Assembly (NCBI GenBank): GCA_016214565.1
Contig: JACROE010000002.1
Span: 1 to 35,819, forward strand
DNA from: Candidatus Kerfeldbacteria bacterium
GTDB taxonomy: Bacteria; Patescibacteriota; Patescibacteriia; UBA10025; JAHIVO01
DNA length: 35,819 nt
Reading direction: 5' to 3'
Shown: in pieces, positions 4,323 through 27,346 of the stretch
Numbering within the stretch: the stretch's first letter is position 1
Layout of the letters: each line of letters starts with the position of its first letter
Made by a program: the position numbers and the translations under genes
The notes under the pieces: generated by a model
Database searches by the model: none
Told to the model about the DNA's origin: nothing
Seen by the model: the letters and a program-made list of their open reading frames with translations, nothing else

Positions 4323-6134
4323 GACGGCCCGATACGCCTCGGGTGGGATATCCACTGTACCCATACTCCGCATGCGCTGCTTGCCTTTTTTCTGTTTCTC
4401 TAGGAGTTTGCGTTTTCTAGTGACATCACCACCATAGAGTTTGGCGGTAACGTCTTTTCGCATTGCGGATATGCGGCTGGATGCAATAATCTTTCCACCA
4501 AGGCTGGCCTGAATCTTAACCTCAAACATCTGCCGCGGGATTACTTCCTTTAATTGATCAACAACGGTACGGCCAATCCGATAAGCATCAGCGCTATATA
4601 CAATCGATGCCAATGCCTCGACGGGATCTTCGGCTACAATGATATCCATGCGCTGAACCACACAAGGACGATAGTTCAGAAAATCATAATTTAATGAAGC
4701 ATAACCAGCACTGATACTCTTCAGTGTATCATAAAAATCAACCAAGAGACTAGCTAAGGGCACTTCATAATGAAGCACTGCTTTCTCGGCATCTAAATAC
4801 TCGGTGGTGCTAAAAACACCGCGTTTTTCCTGTACCATAGTCATGATGGGCCCAATGGAGCTACTCGGGGTAACAATGTCAACGCGCATCCATGGCTCTT
4901 CCACCCGATCAATATGAGTGGCTTCGGGTAATTCATGCGGATTGGTGACAACGATGGTTGTGCCGGAAAACCGTTTGTCTTTGCGCTGACGGTTGTGGAT
5001 CCCCGCCTTACTGAGCGTAACGCGATATGCGACCGAAGGCGCGGTCACAACAATTGCTACATGGTGTTCCCGACGTATGCGTTCTTGAAATATTTCTAAA
5101 TGTAACATCCCGAGGAATCCGCAACGGAACCCAAACCCCAGTGCTTCTGAGTGATCCGGCTCGTACACGAGTGAAGCGTCAGTCAAGGCGACCTTGCTTA
5201 TAGCATCACGCAGTTCTTCATACGCATCCCCCTCTTTGCAATAGATTCCGGCAAAAACCATAGGCTTCAGTTCTCGGTACCCAGGCACCGCCTGGGTAGC
5301 AGGTTGACGCACCGTCGTCACTGTATCGCCAACACGACTGTGCTGAATGTCGCGCAGTCCGGTAACAATGTACCCGATTTCACCCGCCTGAAGCGATTCA
5401 CGCGGAGTAAGCCCCGGCTTGAAATAACCAATTTCCTCAACATCGGAAACAACACTACGTGCCATTAATTTGAGTTGTTCATGGTGTTGGATGGTACCAT
5501 TAAAGACACGTCCATATACCACCACCCCCTTATAGGTATCATAGAATGAATCAAACACCAGCATTTGCACTGGCGCTGTAGTATCGCCCACGGGCGGCGG
5601 TACTCGTCCAATTACTGCAGCAATTATTTGTTCAACATTGAGCCCGGTTTTTGCTGACACAGCTAAAATTTCTTCTGGACGACACCCGAGCAATTGCACC
5701 AAATCTGCACGAACTTGATCAACATTAGCATTTGGTAAATCAATTTTATTAATGACCGGTATAATGGTCAAATTTTGATCAAGTGCTAAATACAAATTCG
5801 CCAGTGTCTGTGCCTCGATCCCCTGACTCGCGTCAACCAATAGCAAGGCGCCCTCAACCGCAGCCAGCGAACGCGAGACTTCATAGGTAAAATCGACATG
5901 CCCGGGCGTATCAATAAGATTCAAAATATAACCATTATACTCCATGCGCACCGGCTGTAGTTTGATAGTTATCCCACGCTCACGCTCGAGCTCCATCTGG
6001 TCCAATAATTGCGCTTTCATGTGACGCGGGTCAACCGTTTTCGTCAATTCTAATAGTCGATCCGCAAGTGTTGATTTGCCATGATCGATATGCGCAATGA
6101 TGCAAAAATTTCGAATTTGCTTCAAGGGAATCAT
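4311..6134 (-). CDS. lepA: Translation elongation factor 4 (LepA)
   Basis: 607 aa with GTPase motifs AHIDHGKST, DTPGHVDF and NKIDL. Overall EF-G-like layout with a LepA-type C-terminal region. Confidence 0.95.
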   Translation of the reverse strand: MIPLKQIRNFCIIAHIDHGKSTLADRLLELTKTVDPRHMKAQLLDQMELERERGITIKLQPVRMEYNGYILNLIDTPGHVDFTYEVSRSLAAVEGALLLVDASQGIEAQTLANLYLALDQNLTIIPVINKIDLPNANVDQVRADLVQLLGCRPEEILAVSAKTGLNVEQIIAAVIGRVPPPVGDTTAPVQMLVFDSFYDTYKGVVVYGRVFNGTIQHHEQLKLMARSVVSDVEEIGYFKPGLTPRESLQAGEIGYIVTGLRDIQHSRVGDTVTTVRQPATQAVPGYRELKPMVFAGIYCKEGDAYEELRDAISKVALTDASLVYEPDHSEALGFGFRCGFLGMLHLEIFQERIRREHHVAIVVTAPSVAYRVTLSKAGIHNRQRKDKRFSGTTIVVTNPHELPEATHIDRVEEPWMRVDIVTPSSSIGPIMTMVQEKRGVFSTTEYLDAEKAVLHYEVPLASLLVDFYDTLKSISAGYASLNYDFLNYRPCVVQRMDIIVAEDPVEALASIVYSADAYRIGRTVVDQLKEVIPRQMFEVKIQASLGGKIIASSRISAMRKDVTAKLYGGDVTRKRKLLEKQKKGKQRMRSMGTVDIPPEAYRAVLKR

Positions 6135-7744
6135 TCGGTTGGCCTCCCATTACTTAATTGTTGACGCGCTCGTCGGAACCAATGCGTAATAATAGTTATT
6201 TCGTCACAGCGAAAAACGAGGGCAAATATGAGGTACGAAACTACGCCTACTACGGTGGCTCCAATGCCTTGCACCATTATGCCGACAAAAGTTTGCATAT
6301 TAACCCCCAAAGCAAGTATGTATTTAGCAGCAATAACGACTGCTGCCATCATCGCAGAAATCACCAATATTTTCAGAACCGAATTAATAATCTTTCTGTC
6401 ATCGAGATACCCTCGGGCACGACGAAGCAGCATTAGAAGCACCGCCATTTGTACGAAGCTGGTGATGGAAAAAGACAGCGCTAGTCCCATCACACCCATC
6501 ATCCGGCTAAGCATAATGCCACCAACTACATTTAATATCATCGTCCAAATTCCAATCTTGACGGGCGTCTTCGAATCGTGCCAGGCGTAAAACGAACGAG
6601 TTAATAATGGTATGGTACTCTGAGCGAATAAAGACAATGCAAAAAAACCCAACGCTTGAGCAGTTAAATATGTATCAGACCAATCAAACGCGCCAGCTCC
6701 CAGCACGACTCGAACAATTTGAGCACGCAGCAATAATATGAGAACAGAGGTAGGAATAATGAGGAATAAAATTCGTCGAAACGTTGTAGAAAAATGCATC
6801 ACAAACATGTCACTGTCTTTTCTCGCTGAGGCTTCACTAAAAAAGGGGTAAGACGCAACGGCTAGTGAAACGCCAAATACGTTGATCGGAAAATGCTGAA
6901 GGTTTGAAGCAAAATTAAAAATTGCGACTGAACCGGCTGCCAGGGTCGAACCTATGATAACACTAATCAATTGGTCAATCTGATTAACCGCTAAACCAAA
7001 TGTTCGCGGTAGCATGAGTCGTCCAATTTCTCGTACTCCGGGATGTTTACGATCAACTACAAATGCATACCGATATCCGAGCTTCAGTACACTTGGTACC
7101 TGAACAAGCAGATGCAATAATGAACCAAAAACAACTCCATAAGCAAGTCCATAGATACCATAATCGGGCACCCAAAAAATAATACCTACGATAATGCCAA
7201 CATTGTACAGCACCGGCGCAAATGCAAAACTAACATAGCGTTTAAAAGAATTAAGAATGCCGGTCAGTATATTACTGGCACCAAAAAAGATTATTGATAA
7301 AAGCATAATTCGTGTCATCTGAGCCACCATATGCTGTTTTTCTGGCGTAAAGCCAGGTGCGATAAACGGGACTAATTGCGGCGCAAAAATAAATAACACA
7401 ATCCCAAATACAACTAAACCAAACAGTAGAATATTCATCATTGCGTTGGCTAAATACCAAACTGACTGCCGTTCAGAAGGATCAATTTTTGCACGCTCAA
7501 TGTACTGTACAAACACAGGGATAAAAGCAGCCGAAAGTGCTCCCAGTACCAGTACATTAAAAATCAAATCAGGAATACGGAACGCAGTGTAATACACATC
7601 CAGTGTATCCCCGGCTCCAAATTGGGAAGCGAGTAAGCGATCGCGAATCAATCCAAAAAGCCGGCTGACAACTGAGGCGCCGGCGATAATAATTGCCCCA
7701 CCGGTAAGGGTGGTGGTTAGCTTTCGCCAAATCTTCACAAACAT
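6131..7744 (-). CDS. murJ: Lipid II flippase MurJ (MviN family)
   Basis: 537 aa and polytopic. The N-terminus SRLFGLIRDRLLASQFGAGDTLDVYYTAFRIPDLIFNVLVLGALSAAFIPVF is typical of MurJ. 4-nt overlap with the lepA start. Confidence 0.9.
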   Translation of the reverse strand: MFVKIWRKLTTTLTGGAIIIAGASVVSRLFGLIRDRLLASQFGAGDTLDVYYTAFRIPDLIFNVLVLGALSAAFIPVFVQYIERAKIDPSERQSVWYLANAMMNILLFGLVVFGIVLFIFAPQLVPFIAPGFTPEKQHMVAQMTRIMLLSIIFFGASNILTGILNSFKRYVSFAFAPVLYNVGIIVGIIFWVPDYGIYGLAYGVVFGSLLHLLVQVPSVLKLGYRYAFVVDRKHPGVREIGRLMLPRTFGLAVNQIDQLISVIIGSTLAAGSVAIFNFASNLQHFPINVFGVSLAVASYPFFSEASARKDSDMFVMHFSTTFRRILFLIIPTSVLILLLRAQIVRVVLGAGAFDWSDTYLTAQALGFFALSLFAQSTIPLLTRSFYAWHDSKTPVKIGIWTMILNVVGGIMLSRMMGVMGLALSFSITSFVQMAVLLMLLRRARGYLDDRKIINSVLKILVISAMMAAVVIAAKYILALGVNMQTFVGIMVQGIGATVVGVVSYLIFALVFRCDEITIITHWFRRARQQLSNGRPTE

Positions 7745-7753
7745 AGTAAAAAA

Positions 7754-7782
7754 ATTATACCAACTTTATTAACATTTTTCAA
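7754..7782 (-). promoter_or_regulatory. Sigma-70-type promoter of murJ-lepA; leaderless-type spacing
   Basis: Minus strand reads TTGAAA (7782-7777), a 17-nt spacer, then TATAAT (7759-7754), then 9 nt (ttttttact) to the murJ ATG. Confidence 0.65.
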
Positions 7783-8138
7783 GTCTTGTTATCCTTTAGT
7801 GTGTCGTAAAATGGTTTGCAATGCAAACCATCCTGAGCGTAGCGAAGGACCTCAAGGTCGCCCTGAGTCAGAGAAGGGTCTCAGGCAAACCAAAAAGCTG
7901 CCGACAAGCGACAAGCCCAATTGGTACCTCTGATTATTGGAAATGTCCTAAATACAATTTTTAGAACATTTGAGGAGAGAGATTTTCCAAAACCAGTGGT
8001 TGTGGACTCGTCTATTACATTACTTGCCGACAGCTTGCTGATGCGTACACACAGGTAAGCACGATATTTGGTATAGTTGCGATTTAGTAAAATGTCAAGA
8101 TACTGCTTTTTTGAGCATTGAAACCTTATTCAATATTC

Positions 8139-8193
8139 AAAAAAGGAGTGGAGGGCAATCAATGCAAGTGGTTAAAATGCATTGACGCCCTCC
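8139..8193 (-). terminator. Rho-independent terminator after the 134-aa membrane-protein gene
   Basis: Minus strand reads ggagggcgtcaatgca-ttttaaccact-tgcattgattgccctcc followed by actccTTTTTTg. It starts 7 nt after the TAA at 8200-8202. Confidence 0.8.
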
Positions 8194-8199
8194 GATAAC

Positions 8200-8604
8200 T
8201 TAGTGAGTGTAGAAGTAGAAGTATGTTATTGGTACTCCTACGCCCCATCCGATGAGGAATGTGGCGATTGTTTGAAACACCTTTTTTTCAGATGCTGCGT
8301 TGATAGGAACCACAGTTCCTGTATACACACTGAGTACCATACCGACCAGCCAAAACGGAACCGGCATCAGATGAGTGCCAATATCGCGGATGTAGTATTT
8401 CATAAATCCACTGGTTGGCCACTGATGATCAATCGCCGGCAACGGTACTACGAGATAGATCCCCCAAAAAAGAAAAAACCCAATAGTCCACGCCCAGGCT
8501 GTCTGCTTCTTTCCGCTATGCCACTTGACGATGAACCAGTACACGGTACAGATACTGGTAACAAGTATTGCGGACGTTACAATCCGCAAAGGTTCATAAG
8601 ACAT
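8200..8604 (-). CDS. Small 4-TM membrane protein, function unknown
   Basis: The track ORF 8200..8637 starts at a GTG. I prefer the ATG at 8604 (MSYEPLRIV...), which is preceded by GAGGA-tggt. Four hydrophobic helices by eye. No motif I recognise, and it lacks CrcB and SMR signatures. Confidence 0.6.
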   Translation of the reverse strand: MSYEPLRIVTSAILVTSICTVYWFIVKWHSGKKQTAWAWTIGFFLFWGIYLVVPLPAIDHQWPTSGFMKYYIRDIGTHLMPVPFWLVGMVLSVYTGTVVPINAASEKKVFQTIATFLIGWGVGVPITYFYFYTH

Positions 8605-8649
8605 ACCATCCTCACTTTCTATTATTACAATGAACACGTTCTATCTAAC

Positions 8650-8786
8650 CACCGAAGTGGAGGCGAGCCGCCCGCCTTATGTCCGATAAATCGGACTGAC
8701 GGACAACGGCATATCCAGGCACATAACGCAGTGGGTACCGCGCAGCATATGCCAGGTGTATACCAGACTACCCCTCCATTTCGGTG
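8650..8786 (-). promoter_or_regulatory. Structured 137-nt leader element X (closing helix plus two internal hairpins) upstream of the 4-TM gene
   Basis: A 14-bp closing helix joins 8650-8663 (caccgaagtggagg) and 8773-8786 (cctccatttcggtg). Internal hairpins are gtccga-taaa-tcggac (8681-8696) and ggcatat ... atatgcc (8708-8753), the latter with a nested 6-bp hairpin. The element ends 45 nt before the ATG at 8604. The strand is assigned from gene context only. Confidence 0.35.
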
Positions 8787-8805
8787 ACTAGTTTGTAAAA
8801 AACTC

Positions 8806-8888
8806 CTTTCTTCAACAATCAACGGGTTACCCATTTATCGCTGGAGAAAGTAGGCCAGTAATAAATCCTAAGATTTACGACTGGCCTA
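8806..8888 (-). repeat. Two-hairpin module U1: conserved hairpin C1 (8806-8850) plus variable hairpin V1 (8851-8888)
   Basis: C1 (minus strand) reads ctttctccagcgataaatgggtaacccgttgattgttgaagaaag and is followed by agTTTTTTac. V1 pairs taggccagt with actggccta around an inner stem taaatc/gattta. Confidence 0.75.
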
Positions 8889-8907
8889 AGGACGGGCGGG
8901 CGGAGCG

Positions 8908-9057
8908 TCAATGAGGTTTGTTCGGCACCGTCTTTACGGTTCCATGCACATACTGGCTCCGACGAACCATGTCTCGTAGTTCCTGCTGCAACCGACGAGG
9001 GATGAGATCCCCCAGACGATGTGTGGATACTGACGACGGATGATTCCATCTTTTCAT
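8908..9057 (-). CDS. Possible 49-aa basic protein
   Basis: ATG at 9057 is preceded by GAGG-ttgcc. Translation: MKRWNHPSSVSTHRLGDLIPRRLQQELRDMVRRSQYVHGTVKTVPNKPH, ending in TGA at 8908-8910. The start lies 42 nt after hairpin C2, mirroring the 38-nt spacing between C3 and the 61-aa ORF. Too short for the track and I have no homology evidence; it could instead be non-coding. Confidence 0.3.
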   Translation of the reverse strand: MKRWNHPSSVSTHRLGDLIPRRLQQELRDMVRRSQYVHGTVKTVPNKPH

Positions 9058-9099
9058 GGCAACCTCAGTTGTTAAGGTTAGAGCACTTTAGTTAATTTC

Positions 9100-9182
9100 C
9101 TTTCTTCAGCAATCAACCAGATAACCGATTAATCGCTGGAGAAAGTGGATGATGGAAATACGAAGCGTATTTTTCATCATCC
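9100..9182 (-). repeat. Two-hairpin module U2: conserved hairpin C2 (9100-9145) plus variable hairpin V2 (9147-9182)
   Basis: C2 (minus strand) reads ctttctccagcgattaatcggttatctggttgattgctgaagaaag: 21 pairs, one C-A mismatch, four G-U pairs, loop UUAU. V2 pairs ggatgatg with catcatcc, with an inner stem aaatacg/cgtattt. Confidence 0.75.
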
Positions 9183-9233
9183 ATAAACTGACGATGCTTA
9201 ACTGCTGACATTGTGGCAGGTCTTGTTAACAAT

Positions 9234-9419
9234 TTACTTGCTAACTTTTATTACTTTGTACTCATAGAGTACTGCCAGCAGCATTACATTGAATAACATC
9301 AAACCGTTAATATCAAACGGCCTAGTTTGGCTAAAAAGCCAAGAGCCAATAAAATGAGCAATGACTTGCTCAAGTACAAATGCGGCTCCAATCAACAGAA
9401 CCTTAATGGACGTACTCAT
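9234..9419 (-). CDS. 61-aa two-helix membrane protein, function unknown
   Basis: A strong SD (AAGGAG-taagtc) precedes the ATG at 9419. Translation: MSTSIKVLLIGAAFVLEQVIAHFIGSWLFSQTRPFDINGLMLFNVMLLAVLYEYKVIKVSK, with two hydrophobic segments. Confidence 0.55.
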   Translation of the reverse strand: MSTSIKVLLIGAAFVLEQVIAHFIGSWLFSQTRPFDINGLMLFNVMLLAVLYEYKVIKVSK

Positions 9420-9457
9420 GACTTACTCCTTACTTAAAGTCAAAGATCATTCAGTTT

Positions 9458-9543
9458 CCCTCCTTCAGCAATTAATGAGATAACCCATTAACCGCTGAAG
9501 GAGGGAGGGCACGTAATTCATCAAAAGATGCGTTAGGTGCCCT
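9458..9543 (-). repeat. Two-hairpin module U3: conserved hairpin C3 (9458-9505) plus variable hairpin V3 (9506-9543)
   Basis: C3 (minus strand) reads ccctccttcagcggttaatgggttatctcattaattgctgaaggaggg: 22 pairs, no mismatch, three G-U pairs, loop UUAU. V3 pairs agggcac with gtgccct, with an inner stem catc-tttt-gatg. Confidence 0.8.
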
Positions 9544-9575
9544 AGGGCGGATGATAGAAGATAAGGGATGTGCAA

Positions 9576-9730
9576 TTTGTGTGTAGGGAGAAGGATTCGA
9601 GAGGCGCGCCTTTGGTCACCGAGGTGACCGACGCACCGAATGCCAGAGGTAGTTATGTTCCAGTCGAAACCGGATCACGACTATCTCATGGTGGCACCCA
9701 TTACTCGTCCTCCTTTTCCCTACGAACAAA
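9576..9730. ncRNA. Candidate structured RNA or inverted-repeat element Y (155 nt)
   Basis: 9576-9601 (tttgtgtgtagggagaaggattcgag) pairs with 9704-9730 (ctcgtcctccttttccctacgaacaaa). That gives about 23 bp with small internal loops. The one wobble (g9590:t9716) is a pair only on the plus strand. The interior contains ggtcac-cgag-gtgacc (9613-9628). No ORF respects the element's boundaries. Confidence 0.3.
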
Positions 9731-9832
9731 CTGTTGAAGCATCGCGAGCATCGACTTTATGTCGGGCAAGCGATACTGCAGCTTTGCGGAAAGCATTGAA
9801 AACTACTTTCTTAAAGGAGTTTTTAAGTTTAC

Positions 9833-9872
9833 AAAAAACGTCTTTCCGTGATTTGAGGGAGAGACGTTTTTT
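9833..9872. terminator. Bidirectional rho-independent terminator
   Basis: Reads AAAAAAcgtctttcc-gtgatttga-gggagagacgTTTTTT: a 9-10 bp stem with an A-tract before it and a T-tract after it. Confidence 0.65.
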
Positions 9873-10141
9873 GCTTGAGTTATTGGTTGTTATAACCAAC
9901 GTGAACGCAATACTACGATAGTACGCTATTCATGGCTTGTACCAAACGCATTTCCACCGGCGTTTGCGGTGACTCTCTCCTCAAAGAGTTTATTGATAAT
10001 GTAAAAGAATCAATAGCGTAACAGAAGAGTATATCGCGAAGGCTGTACACCGTCAAGGGTTGGCTGGGGATATTAGAAATGCTTTTTTTCGATCATTAGC
10101 CAAAAAGTTATCCACAATGAATTATTCATGGCTAATATTAG

Positions 10142-10169
10142 ATAAAACAAAAAGGCCCTCAATAGGCCT
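10142..10169 (-). terminator. Probable terminator after the DUF4012 gene
   Basis: Minus strand reads aggcc-tattgag-ggcct followed by TTTTTgTTTTatc. The stem is 16 nt after the stop codon at 10186-10188 and is only 5 bp long. Confidence 0.45.
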
Positions 10170-10185
10170 CAAACTAGCTATCGTT

Positions 10186-12507
10186 CTAGCCCTCGATGAG
10201 CGTCCTAATAACTCGGTCGCCAAGCAAATCTTCTCTCCAGGTGGCGGTATGGGTATCGGTATCCACGTCTCCAGAAGTCCAGCGAATATCCAAGTCGGGA
10301 TTAGTCGTCACCCGGCTAATCACACCGGAAACTGGCGCGCCTGGCTGCTGCTGTAGATACAATGAATAGACATCAGTCGGATTCCACCAACCGCTGAAAT
10401 CTAAGCGCCCGGGAAGTCGATAGGTAATGGTCATCGTTTGAGACTCTCCTGGATCAATACTCATCCAATTTCCAAAAACTGTTTTGCCAAATTCATTCGT
10501 AATGCGTGTATTTGTTTGTTCGTTAATAATTGAATCAGTTTCAATCGTCGCAAGGTCCGCATCCTCCTTCGCATCAGTATCGGGTAACTTGAAACGCGAG
10601 CTAACCATCTCATCAAATCCCTCGGCGGTTAAGAATTCGCTCCCCTGCGGTACATATAATCGCACATAGGACACGTTTGCCTGCCCGGCAAATTTATCAA
10701 ACGGGCTACCGGTATGACTACGCGTGATGCGCACCGTATCGATTACTGAACCGTCAGATTCGATTGTTGCGGTATGCTCGATCAGCTGGTCAATGACTTG
10801 ATCGGTCTTTCCCCCGCCGATATTAGTATTGACCACCGCCAAATAATCACCATCGGGTTGTGCCAGTGCGCCATCCCAGCCTTGTTCATGAATTGCCGCC
10901 TGCGCATCAGCGTCAGTGAAATACACGAGCATATTGCGATCCTGCAATGAATTGAGCATGACTTCAACAACAGATAATAGCTGCGCTGGCTCCGCATTAA
11001 ATACTTTATTCATCAATAGCGGCATCATGTCTCCAATAAATCGTTTCGGCTGATTTTCTTCGCGATCATAGGTCACTTCTGCCCAGACCTGCGCCTCACG
11101 CACAAAATTACTGGCATCAACCGTCACGCCATATCGCTCCTGCATATCCAGTGGTCCAGTGATTTCCAAGAGCCGCTCAATGACCGTAGGAGTGAGTGTC
11201 AGGACTCCGTCAACAGAGGTGCCACCGGTACGCTCAAAAAACCACATGGTTTTCTTCGCTGAGGTGGGAAAATCAGGAAACCAATTACTATCTTGTATAT
11301 TCCAGTGTGGATTTACGATCCAGAGTGGCTTCGGGGAAATCAATTTGTCCTTGAGCTGGCCGGCAATGTCATAAATACCGCCACCAGGTACCGCAATTTC
11401 CTGTACTGCACCGCGATACATATCAACCAGAGCGATTGAACCCATGAATCCACCGGTGGGACGAAGTTCGCGATTATTTTGGAACACTAATAAATATCGA
11501 CGAGGTGCGTCATGACCCAAAATATATAGTAACACATCGGACAATTCAGACGCATCACGAAGCCGCTGGTTGAGCTGTGGTGCACTCTCCTGCAGCGCCT
11601 GAATCGGAGCTCGGTACTCCTCGGGCAAATCATTAATCCGAACATTTGCCAGTGCTGCTGTCCCCGCTTCAATTTCTCCAATAATTGGATCAAGCTGGCC
11701 ACTGGCGATTGCTAAATACGACGTCAGTGTAGAATCATCAGAAACCCCAGCGGTGCCTGGTGTTTGCGCTTGAAGCAGGCTTATTAATTCGGTGATCTGT
11801 GCCCCGGCTTGACTCAGATGGGTGCCTGCTTCCAGTAGCGCTGAAGCGCTCTTCACTTTTCCTGGCAATGCAGTCGCAATGCTGGTAACAACGCCCCCCG
11901 CAGCATCTAGTTCGGTTGAAGCAGCGGAAAATTCTGTCGCGGCATTGCGGAAACGCTCAGCGGCTGAAATAAAATCCGTGTCTGTTACTGCTCCACCGGC
12001 AGCTTGCAGTTCATCATAGGCATTTGAAGAAATACCAAGTACCGTACCCTCCGCCCGCACTGCACGCTGGTAGACGGTGAAACCTATAATCGGCAAAATA
12101 ATAACGAGGCACATGGTAGCAAAACCAACCAGTCGTTTTGGCCACCCGGCAGGCAACGTAAAATGCATTAAACGGACTTGATTCGATGTTGTTGTAACGG
12201 TCGGCACAGGTGCCTTTGGCTGTGCTATCGGCTGTGACAATGACGCATGAGGATACCGTGAAACGATCACCGATTCCCGAGTCTGTCGCCCCTCTTCAAT
12301 TACCCGCTTCGTTCGTCGTGCGGTCCACCACGTTGTCGCACGCTCGATCAGCTGTTTCCAGCGTGATTCGCGGGGCTGATCAATATGCTGCAATTCCTGC
12401 TTGCGCATCGCACGCAAGTCAATTACATTCTCTCGCGGCACTCCGGTAAAACCGGATCGTGGTCGAATAGGCATAGATTGTGGCTGATGTTGGCGAACGC
12501 GTGGCAT
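10186..12507 (-). CDS. DUF4012-type large membrane-anchored extracytoplasmic protein
   Basis: 773 aa. It has a long basic N-terminal tail and a single TM (LVGFATMCLVIILPIIGFTVY). Core block: RYLLVFQNNRELRPTGGFMGSIALVDM, which I recall as typical of DUF4012 proteins found beside polysaccharide loci. AGGA SD upstream. Confidence 0.6.
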   Translation of the reverse strand: MPRVRQHQPQSMPIRPRSGFTGVPRENVIDLRAMRKQELQHIDQPRESRWKQLIERATTWWTARRTKRVIEEGRQTRESVIVSRYPHASLSQPIAQPKAPVPTVTTTSNQVRLMHFTLPAGWPKRLVGFATMCLVIILPIIGFTVYQRAVRAEGTVLGISSNAYDELQAAGGAVTDTDFISAAERFRNAATEFSAASTELDAAGGVVTSIATALPGKVKSASALLEAGTHLSQAGAQITELISLLQAQTPGTAGVSDDSTLTSYLAIASGQLDPIIGEIEAGTAALANVRINDLPEEYRAPIQALQESAPQLNQRLRDASELSDVLLYILGHDAPRRYLLVFQNNRELRPTGGFMGSIALVDMYRGAVQEIAVPGGGIYDIAGQLKDKLISPKPLWIVNPHWNIQDSNWFPDFPTSAKKTMWFFERTGGTSVDGVLTLTPTVIERLLEITGPLDMQERYGVTVDASNFVREAQVWAEVTYDREENQPKRFIGDMMPLLMNKVFNAEPAQLLSVVEVMLNSLQDRNMLVYFTDADAQAAIHEQGWDGALAQPDGDYLAVVNTNIGGGKTDQVIDQLIEHTATIESDGSVIDTVRITRSHTGSPFDKFAGQANVSYVRLYVPQGSEFLTAEGFDEMVSSRFKLPDTDAKEDADLATIETDSIINEQTNTRITNEFGKTVFGNWMSIDPGESQTMTITYRLPGRLDFSGWWNPTDVYSLYLQQQPGAPVSGVISRVTTNPDLDIRWTSGDVDTDTHTATWREDLLGDRVIRTLIEG

Positions 12508-17915: not shown

Positions 17916-17958
17916 GCCTGGCCGACTGGATTAGTAAATTATTCATAGATTTGGTTGT

Positions 17959-18365
17959 GCCCAAGCAAACCTATAAGCCGAATTCTGTGTCTCGCCAAAG
18001 GCGGACGGTGACTATCTATCTTGTCCTGACGTTGCCATCAGGATCATGCGACCAACCCATCCCGACGAATCGTCGGAATCTACTTGGTCTTGCACCGGAT
18101 AGGGTTTTTCACGTTCGGCCGTCACCGACCAAACCTGTGGGCTCTTACCCCACTTCTTTTCACCCTTACCCCGAAATTGCTTCCGAGGCGGTATTGTCTC
18201 TGTGACACTATTCCCTAAAGGCAACATCCAGAAGACTTAAGACCTTCTAATTGCTGACTTCGGTCGTCTTTCACGACTATCCTTGGCTCCGTTTTTAATG
18301 ACGGAGGGTGTTCGGACTTTCCTCACATTACAAATGCAATGTGCAATCACCCGGTTCACTTGGGC
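17959..18365 (-). ncRNA. rnpB: RNase P RNA, bacterial type A
   Basis: The minus-strand read contains the conserved blocks GAGGAAAGTCCGAAC (P4 5' strand), GGTAAGGGTGAAA, GGTAAGAGCCCAC and ACAGAATTCGGCTTATAGG (P4 3' strand). A 13-bp P1 joins GCCCAAGTGAACC (18365-18353) and GGTTTGCTTGGGC (17971-17959). A consensus promoter places the TSS at about 18365. Confidence 0.9.
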
Positions 18366-18372
18366 ATGGTGG

Positions 18373-18401
18373 AGTATATGAAAAAAGGCCATTTTTGTCA
18401 A
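18373..18401 (-). promoter_or_regulatory. rnpB promoter
   Basis: Minus strand reads TTGACA (18401-18396), a 17-nt spacer, then TATACT (18378-18373). P1 begins about 7 nt downstream. Confidence 0.7.
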
Positions 18402-27315: not shown

Positions 27316-27346
27316 AAAAACAGCCCGGCCAAGCCGGGCTGTTTTA
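27316..27346. terminator. Strong bidirectional rho-independent terminator
   Basis: Reads AAAAAcagcccgg-ccaag-ccgggctgTTTT: a perfect GC-rich stem with an A-tract on one side and a T-tract on the other. It sits between convergent genes. Confidence 0.85.

Follow-up and report, generated by a model that had tools for sequence, protein, structure and literature searches.

Modules between DUF4012 and murJ

The 35,819-nucleotide (nt) stretch analysed here, positions 1–35,819 of contig JACROE010000002.1 from a Candidatus Kerfeldbacteria bacterium (hereafter the window), carries an island of small open reading frames (ORFs) in which a two-hairpin RNA module, a hairpin V of free sequence followed directly by a conserved hairpin C, recurs at the gene boundaries. 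The window is ordinary chromosome of the small-genome Patescibacteria type, with lepA, murJ, a glycosyltransferase cluster, DUF4012, RNase HI, recJ, dus and PFOR, and the island lies in an envelope-polysaccharide-type cluster of glycosyltransferases, a Wzz-like protein, DUF4012 and the flippase. All coordinates are those of the window, and the modules are read on the minus strand, which is the gene-sense strand. From the upstream to the downstream border, the genes and modules are as follows.

10186–12507, minus strand: DUF4012 gene (Pfam E = 2e-28), conserved upstream border of the island by synteny
10080–10170, minus strand: fifth module, same architecture, directly after the DUF4012 stop codon; from a terminator scan and folding
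9507–9542, minus strand: hairpin V3, unrelated in sequence to the other V hairpins, with a 0-nt spacer to C3; from folding
9457–9506, minus strand: hairpin C3, 23 base pairs (bp) including 3 G·U, UUAU loop, perfectly paired; covariance-model scores 80.9 bits (model R1) and 72.8 bits (model R2)
9234–9419, minus strand: 61-aa ORF, cargo gene 1, a called gene between modules 3 and 2, with two transmembrane helices suggested by its sequence
9146–9183, minus strand: hairpin V2, beginning about 50 nt past the 61-aa ORF's stop codon; the tract CUUUCUCC after it forms the 5′ arm of C2
9100–9145, minus strand: hairpin C2, with the conserved C·A mismatch and the CAGC:GCUG / G·U core; from folding and model match
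8908–9057, minus strand: 49-aa ORF, cargo gene 2, a called gene flanked by modules 2 and 1, with no counterpart in relatives
8851–8888, minus strand: hairpin V1, beginning 19 nt past the stop codon of the 49-aa ORF
8806–8850, minus strand: hairpin C1, same core as C2, UAA loop, followed by UUUUUU; from folding and model match
8200–8604, minus strand: 134-aa multi-transmembrane ORF, cargo gene 3, a called gene preceded by a structured leader, element X
8102–8193, minus strand: fourth module, same architecture, after the 134-aa ORF; from an inverted repeat and folding
6131–7744, minus strand: murJ-type flippase gene with its own promoter at 7754–7782, conserved downstream border by synteny

Immediately 5′ of each of the hairpins C1 to C3, with a spacer of 0 nt, stands an unrelated V hairpin (n = 3). 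Folding of the three modules on the minus strand gave energies of −43.4, −42.9 and −57.4 kcal/mol (z = −7.4, −8.5 and −11.2), none of 200 shuffles folded as stably, and the plus-strand folds were 6–12 kcal/mol weaker. C3 is the sole copy with a U–A pair at the usual C·A position, and over its central 35 nt it matches the copy in the related locus L036/L015 exactly; C1 has additional mismatches at its basal end. The distance from C to the next ORF is about 37–40 nt for C3 and C2 and about 199 nt for C1, where it runs across element X. A degenerate C pattern with up to three mismatches, for which 100 shuffles gave a chance expectation of 0.00, matched C2 and C3 in the window (C3 on both strands) and missed C1.

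An earlier description of this stretch, the sequence-only reading, had reported these three copies on the minus strand, and refolding bore out its coordinates, stem lengths, loops, mismatches and ORF distances. Its count of three was too low: two core-less modules had been missed, so that the window holds five, three with the core and two without it. The module at 8102–8193 consists of V0 (8150–8193) and a C0-like hairpin (8102–8149) whose 5′ arm is a U tract and 3′ arm an A tract and which is devoid of the CCAG/CUGAA core. That at 10080–10170 starts with a terminator-like hairpin (10152–10170) and a U tract and continues into a long hairpin, also missing the CCAG/CUGAA core, which base pairs the U tract with a downstream A tract.

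Homologous modules in related loci

Scans of genome and metagenome collections with exact C patterns identified one true relative each, L015 among 19 matches in genome contigs and L036 among 29 matches in metagenome contigs, both with the same sequence; viral contigs gave 0 matches to the exact pattern. Because C covaries, exact patterns are too strict for it, and synteny established through DUF4012 homologues succeeded instead. In L015/L036 the DUF4012 protein is 45% identical to that of the window, and the module lies downstream of DUF4012 and ahead of a non-homologous secreted protein of 337 aa, with an unrelated V preceding C. Retrieval of syntenic loci through DUF4012 homologues of 40–56% identity placed the module at the same position, between the DUF4012 gene and murJ, in eight other Patescibacteria assemblies. 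The gene order common to all loci is a glycosyltransferase cluster, DUF4012, 2–5 kb of small ORFan genes for membrane or secreted proteins, murJ and lepA, and the island cargo differs in every genome. The 61-aa ORF is weakly similar to the first cargo gene of L052, with which it has an SQTR motif in common, and the 134-aa protein, whose database homologue search returned itself only, is weakly similar to a 163-aa protein of L052. Cargo in the relatives includes 300–370-aa secreted proteins and an FHA-domain protein.

The sequence-only reading had proposed to build a covariance model from the modules and to search related genomes with it. Models R1, built from the window copies, and R2, built from ten copies, detected 23 copies in nine loci, all of them inside the island and on the coding (sense) strand, and 0 copies elsewhere in the window or in about 90 kb of the relatives' flanks; the locus L059 (DUF4012 40% identity) gave no match to the models. 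A control search of 720 kb of viral DNA, pre-selected with the core pattern, yielded one weak match (31 bits; L124, 833–883, plus strand, on a 225-kb viral contig), which lies inside a predicted coding region, has no V and was judged a chance hit. A looser pattern scan of viral DNA produced more than 120 chance matches, and blastn of 8700–9700 against phage and plasmid collections returned no match.

Modules thus detected by model do not exhaust the islands. Folding of the gene ends in L060 revealed four further core-less modules of the same architecture without a model match, two of them near-identical including V and flanks, and the module at L060 8346–8410 is without the conserved core. More generally, a copy resembles the others of its own genome more than those of other genomes. 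In L060, near-identical segments of about 110 nt, each made up of flank, V, C and flank, occur at 9600–9700 and 10850–10950 and differ by few substitutions, one of which is in the C stem; whole modules therefore duplicate within an island. Several independent metagenome contigs begin or end in or beside modules or just after DUF4012 (the start of L002 in V3, L053 9045–9075 and L036 4284–4356 in C, and the end of L054), and these breaks hint at repeats or strain heterogeneity at the modules.

Covariation in hairpin C

Two alignments of hairpin C, of 10 copies (A5) and 19 copies (A6), served to examine the compensatory changes that the sequence-only reading had noted between the copies of the window; the changes are present there, and the homologues multiplied them. 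In the 19-copy alignment, 88.7% of cells are in standard pairs, as against 69.4% in shuffles and 44–52% with slid partners, and 19 of the 23 pairs have changed on both sides. The covariation score is 0.574 versus 0.225 in shuffles, and none of 500 shuffles reached 0.574. The 10-copy alignment is concordant, with 89.6% of cells paired and double changes in 14 of the 23 pairs. The structure of C is under selection.

Within this structure the upper stem is free in sequence and always keeps its pairing, and the core is near-invariant: a C·A mismatch, CAGC:GCUG and a G·U pair. Its C–G pair is present in 19 of 19 copies, its A–U pair in 18 of 19 and the C·A mismatch in 15 of 19; the G·U pair is found in all 10 well-aligned copies (13 of 19 overall). 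The ends of C read YYUYYCCAGCG … UGCUGAARRRR, the 5′ arm of the lower stem is 94% pyrimidine and the 3′ arm 96% purine, and the predicted stems measure 18–23 bp in all copies. Outside the two conserved non-Watson–Crick positions, G·U exceeds A·C by 38 to 9 (binomial p = 2.5e-5, uncorrected for phylogeny), and the sense-strand fold of C is the more stable one in 17 of 20 modules. The G·U excess and the fold energies identify the gene-sense strand as the folded one, in agreement with the minus-strand assignment made earlier.

The proposal that the module belongs to no known RNA family also held. At the gathering threshold of Rfam 15, RNase P alone passed in the window and RNase P alone was found in seven related loci, with no match to the module, and relaxing the limit to E values up to 10 for 8000–10300 brought up sub-threshold matches to microRNA-type hairpins and nothing else. 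ARAGORN called no transfer RNA (tRNA) or transfer-messenger RNA (tmRNA), despite a tmRNA-like GGTTTCGAC in the region and a T-arm-like GGGTTCAACTCCC in L015. A double-stranded DNA operator was rejected as an account of C, as the conserved half-sites are variably spaced and the spacer itself is kept self-complementary.

A palindromic, multi-copy, intergenic element with conserved ends, duplicated in L060, might be a selfish or neutral repeat tolerated in intergenic DNA, akin to miniature inverted-repeat elements or to repetitive extragenic palindromic sequences and bacterial interspersed mosaic elements (REP/BIME). REP/BIME and the Correia elements of Neisseria are co-transcribed intergenic palindromes that stabilise the upstream messenger RNA (mRNA) or are cut by RNase III; they occur genome-wide and in both orientations and are mobile or transposase-associated. 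The module is likewise a repeated intergenic palindrome able to form a hairpin, but its copies are found in one island, with none in the rest of the 35.8-kb window or the roughly 90 kb of relatives' flanks, are always in sense orientation and hold a fixed position relative to stop codons, and no target-site duplications or transposase were seen. Moreover, upper stems that differ completely have had their pairing kept by compensatory substitutions, which argues for selection on structure. We regard a selfish or neutral repeat as very improbable.

Hairpin V and the ends of genes

Folding of the 55 nt upstream of every C copy revealed an unrelated stable hairpin 0–1 nt upstream of C in 19 of 20 modules; V is conserved as a hairpin and free in sequence. 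When mapped onto called genes, V begins 10–50 nt past the stop codon of the preceding gene, and C lies 45–99 nt from the stop codon with V between them. Across the nine loci, modules mark nearly every gene boundary of the island and also follow its last gene. What stands of the sequence-only reading is a genuine conserved structured element on the sense strand; its framing as an element upstream of small ORFs, possibly a cis-regulatory leader, does not, given modules placed 10–50 nt past stop codons. The module is better described as gene-end punctuation of the island than as a leader of small ORFs.

Together, V and the U/C tract that starts C look like the anatomy of an intrinsic terminator. 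Copies that follow ORFs have 4–7 U in the first 12 nt of C (U-rich examples are CUCUUUUCC and CUUUUUUUC), and an independent consensus terminator scan of L060 scored four V hairpins as terminator-like (10 found versus 2.4 expected). The V copies of the window are followed by interrupted tracts (CUUUCUCC, UCCCUCCU) and were not flagged by the terminator scan. As in intrinsic and tandem-hairpin terminators, V is stable, often GC-rich, situated shortly after a stop codon and followed by a U/C-rich tract. The module differs from them in that a second hairpin, covarying and with a conserved core, systematically re-pairs the U tract with a purine tract further downstream, and from a bidirectional terminator in that its A tract is downstream, with reversed polarity. 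Since C has its 3′ arm downstream of the U/C tract, the full C duplex is possible in read-through RNA only. V–C was also considered as the general terminator type of this genome and found unsupported, as terminators outside the island are ordinary (for example, 27317–27345).

Two regulatory interpretations bear on this position. In the first, the hairpins would control small hydrophobic toxins, either as small RNA (sRNA) genes or as fold-back elements, as in the multi-copy sRNA or type I toxin–antitoxin arrangement suggested by the sequence-only reading; the 61-aa and 134-aa products are indeed small and hydrophobic. Promoter-like sites, however, are at chance level on both strands (6 found versus 5.0 expected), a promoter inside C (TTGCTG as −35 with TAnnnT as −10), which we considered and rejected, is present in 3 of 21 copies, and the modules of relatives also flank the 300–370-aa secreted proteins and the FHA-domain protein, the cargo being any small membrane or secreted protein. 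This arrangement is scarcely credible here.

In the second, V and C would be two stacked hairpins bound by a regulatory RNA-binding protein, as in put/EAR processive antitermination or in a translational operator, and would co-regulate the island genes. Processive antitermination is common in envelope-polysaccharide-type clusters, and the location in such a cluster, the two adjacent hairpins with a sequence-specific core and the often Shine–Dalgarno-like purine arm of C would fit a site of this kind. The real ribosome-binding sites, however, lie at least 25–30 nt downstream of C. Modules follow genes, the last one included, rather than promoters, which sets them apart from put and EAR elements; no Rfam family was matched at all, EAR being among those in Rfam, and no candidate protein was identified. 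We consider a protein-binding site of this sort improbable.

A putative punctuation element

Building on the established conservation, covariation, strand, position and terminator-like anatomy of the module, we tentatively favour, with somewhat less than even confidence, the interpretation that V+C is a terminator-coupled mRNA punctuation element with RNase III-type processing of the read-through duplex. V and the U/C tract starting C would form a leaky intrinsic terminator and the 3′-end hairpin of the upstream message. Upon read-through by the polymerase, the downstream purine tract would pair back on the U/C tract to complete the C duplex, and this read-through-specific duplex of about two helical turns could be recognised via its conserved core by a factor that binds double-stranded RNA (dsRNA), most plausibly RNase III. 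Cleavage would then separate the cistrons, with V staying on the upstream mRNA as a 3′ stabiliser and the downstream mRNA gaining a defined 5′ end. Intercistronic processing or stability sites like the RNase III sites of phage T7 were among the roles that the sequence-only reading had suggested; by this analogy, which is compatible with all the findings, such processing is the mechanism that we prefer.

The T7 sites are several related hairpins of about two turns situated between cistrons, and their processing leaves a hairpin at the upstream 3′ end. The module resembles them in its hairpins of about two turns between cistrons and, as predicted, in the 3′ hairpin that processing would leave upstream. 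It is unlike them in belonging to a bacterial chromosomal island and in having a near-continuous stem where T7 sites have an internal loop; moreover, T7 sites have no abutting terminator-like hairpin, and cleavage of the module is a prediction from its anatomy. In the tI/sib system of phage lambda, the extended duplex includes the terminator hairpin and its cleavage destabilises the upstream int mRNA. Lambda and the module would have in common a duplex confined to transcripts that read through a terminator and then recognised by RNase III, whereas the V of the module would stay intact and should remain protective, and the island repeats the element from one gene boundary to the next.

Substrates of RNase III are near-continuous dsRNA of about 20 bp or more, and the predicted stems of 18–23 bp, supported by covariation, are of this kind. 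In E. coli, RNase III substrates are set apart by the base-pair pattern around the cut sites, with G–C/C–G preferred between the two cuts (PMC6212723), so that a long stem with a conserved core would suit this enzyme. Several observations weigh against the processing model. First, the core is missing in some modules (8102–8193 and 10080–10170 of the window and L060 8346–8410), and a factor that reads the core therefore cannot account for every copy. Second, the tracts of the window copies and of other copies in first position are C-rich, with 2–5 U in 12, so that weak terminators are expected. Last, it is equally conceivable that the conserved core is an anti-determinant and shields the duplex from RNase III.

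The same anatomy would also suit a passive composite terminator and stabiliser, in which C stays uncleaved and masks the RNase-sensitive U-rich tract of the read-through RNA, V and C stack into a 'dumbbell' that blocks exonucleases and insulates the cistrons, and the core is an RNase III anti-determinant or a structural feature. The core-less modules retain the pairing of U tract with A tract, which suggests that this pairing is the common denominator, and the module after the last gene of the island has no downstream cistron to separate. A near-invariant core, on the other hand, exceeds the needs of passive masking, and the total stem length is held at about two helical turns. We rate the passive stabiliser as unlikely, if worth keeping in view.

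Intercistronic and terminator-associated RNA hairpins as a general kind are well known. To our knowledge, a terminator hairpin whose U tract is re-paired by a conserved-core hairpin that covaries, and which recurs at almost all gene boundaries of one hypervariable island, is novel.

The island as a possible cassette array

Cargo that differs per genome between conserved borders and conserved modules invites comparison with integrons. The module would then be an attC-like single-stranded DNA (ssDNA) hairpin or recombination site at the 3′ end of promoterless cassettes, with the recombinase encoded elsewhere and used for gaining, losing or shuffling genes for surface proteins, and the island an integrase-less cassette array. 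Like attC sites, the modules stand at the 3′ ends of small promoterless genes of unknown function arranged in an array, have conserved ends, a variable centre, a conserved mismatch and strand-asymmetric folding, and are more alike within than between genomes; the two near-identical modules of L060 and the contigs that break exactly at modules (L002 in V3, L053 and L036 in C) fit this scheme as well.

Set against this, Pfam scans of the ORFs across the 35.8-kb window found no integrase, recombinase or transposase, and neither did the annotated gene lists of the eight syntenic loci; intI is likewise absent from the module loci. The R″/R′ consensus of attC (RYYYAAC / GTTRRRY) is absent from the ends of the copies. 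In classical attC sites the bottom strand folds, whereas here the sense strand does. The additional V hairpin has terminator anatomy tied to the polarity of transcription, and gene order is partly vertical, with the order leader/sRNA, element Y … element X and multi-transmembrane gene conserved. An attC-like site is improbable on these grounds, which apply also to the ssDNA hairpin recognised by a recombinase that the sequence-only reading had listed.

A combined role has a similarly low probability in our estimate: V–C could be the junction of a new gene-cassette system of Patescibacteria, a composite terminator whose conserved-core hairpin would serve both as an RNA processing site that sets each cassette's message apart and as a junction for exchange through ssDNA or homology. 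Cassettes for surface proteins would be exchanged at V–C during natural transformation or via a recombinase encoded elsewhere, and such a dual role would explain a conserved, module-punctuated island with different cargo per genome.

Two further DNA-level candidates were examined and rejected. A dif/Xer site at the replication terminus would call for a switch in the sign of GC skew, which does not occur here. Serial integration at an RNA gene's 3′ end, which would duplicate att sites, was set aside too: in nine loci modules stand past almost all genes, and an integrase is lacking.

The Patescibacteria, or candidate phyla radiation, account for a substantial part of bacterial diversity, and their control of gene expression is almost unstudied. 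Here, an element specific to one lineage of these ultra-small bacteria couples a terminator-like hairpin to a duplex possible on read-through at essentially every boundary of a fast-evolving island of envelope proteins, which probably mediate contact with hosts or phages. Should the module serve as a signal for processing or punctuation, as we favour, it would provide a testable rule for the ends and stoichiometry of surface-protein messages and a compact natural 'insulator' part; if it marks cassette exchange, it would point to a new route to surface variation.

Neighbouring structured RNAs

Three more unannotated structured RNAs near the module make the locus a rich target for RNA discovery.

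9830–10056, minus strand: promoter and multi-hairpin leader/sRNA of about 190 nt, with TTGACG-17-TATACT at 10028–10056 and a terminator hairpin at 9832–9873
9583–9723, minus strand: element Y, a closed multi-branch RNA upstream of V3–C3 (z = −7.45); context
8646–8791, minus strand: element X, a closed structured leader (about 145 nt, z = −6.65) lying between C1 and the 134-aa ORF; context, outside the module

The canonical, conserved promoter at 10028–10056 is the probable transcription start of the island, and the RNA at 9830–10056, which ends in a strong terminator, might be either an sRNA or an attenuating leader, riboswitch-like, that serves the entire island. Conserved blocks of this leader/sRNA (ACTCTTTGAGGAGAGAGT, TAACAACCAATAAC) recur in L036, L052, L053, L055, L056 and L058; its terminator stem shows compensatory changes across six related loci, and Rfam gave no match to it.

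The closing stem of element Y (GGGAAAAGGAGGA / UCCUUCUCCC) covaries with L052, and L053 and L058 contain partial blastn matches to the element. Y also contains a perfect Shine–Dalgarno sequence with a mini-ORF of 3–8 codons and a tmRNA-like GGUUUCGAC motif; neither ARAGORN nor Rfam recognised it. Relative to the window, L015 has a 125-nt insertion inside the Y region (194–310, equivalent to about 2908–3024 in L036), closed by AUGCCGG/CCGGCAU and bearing a tRNA-like T arm, GGGUUCAACUCCC; ARAGORN made no call on this insertion with its T-arm-like part.

Element X, without an Rfam match, is a candidate cis-regulatory RNA. Its closing motif, AUGGRGGG...CYCCA, recurs upstream of genes for multi-transmembrane proteins of 147–163 aa in L052, L055, L056 and L057.

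C copies in first position are followed by a short conserved motif, GAUCNUUGACUU, at 9420–9452 (minus strand) in the window, at about 8567–8600 in L058 and at about 3160–3180 in L036. Its pairing with AAGUCA in the window displays the 61-aa ORF's Shine–Dalgarno sequence in a small loop immediately ahead of the AUG. Last, the RNase P RNA of the window, at 17958–18362 on the minus strand, is of bacterial class A (219.9 bits) and has its own TTGACA-17-TATACT promoter at 18373–18401.

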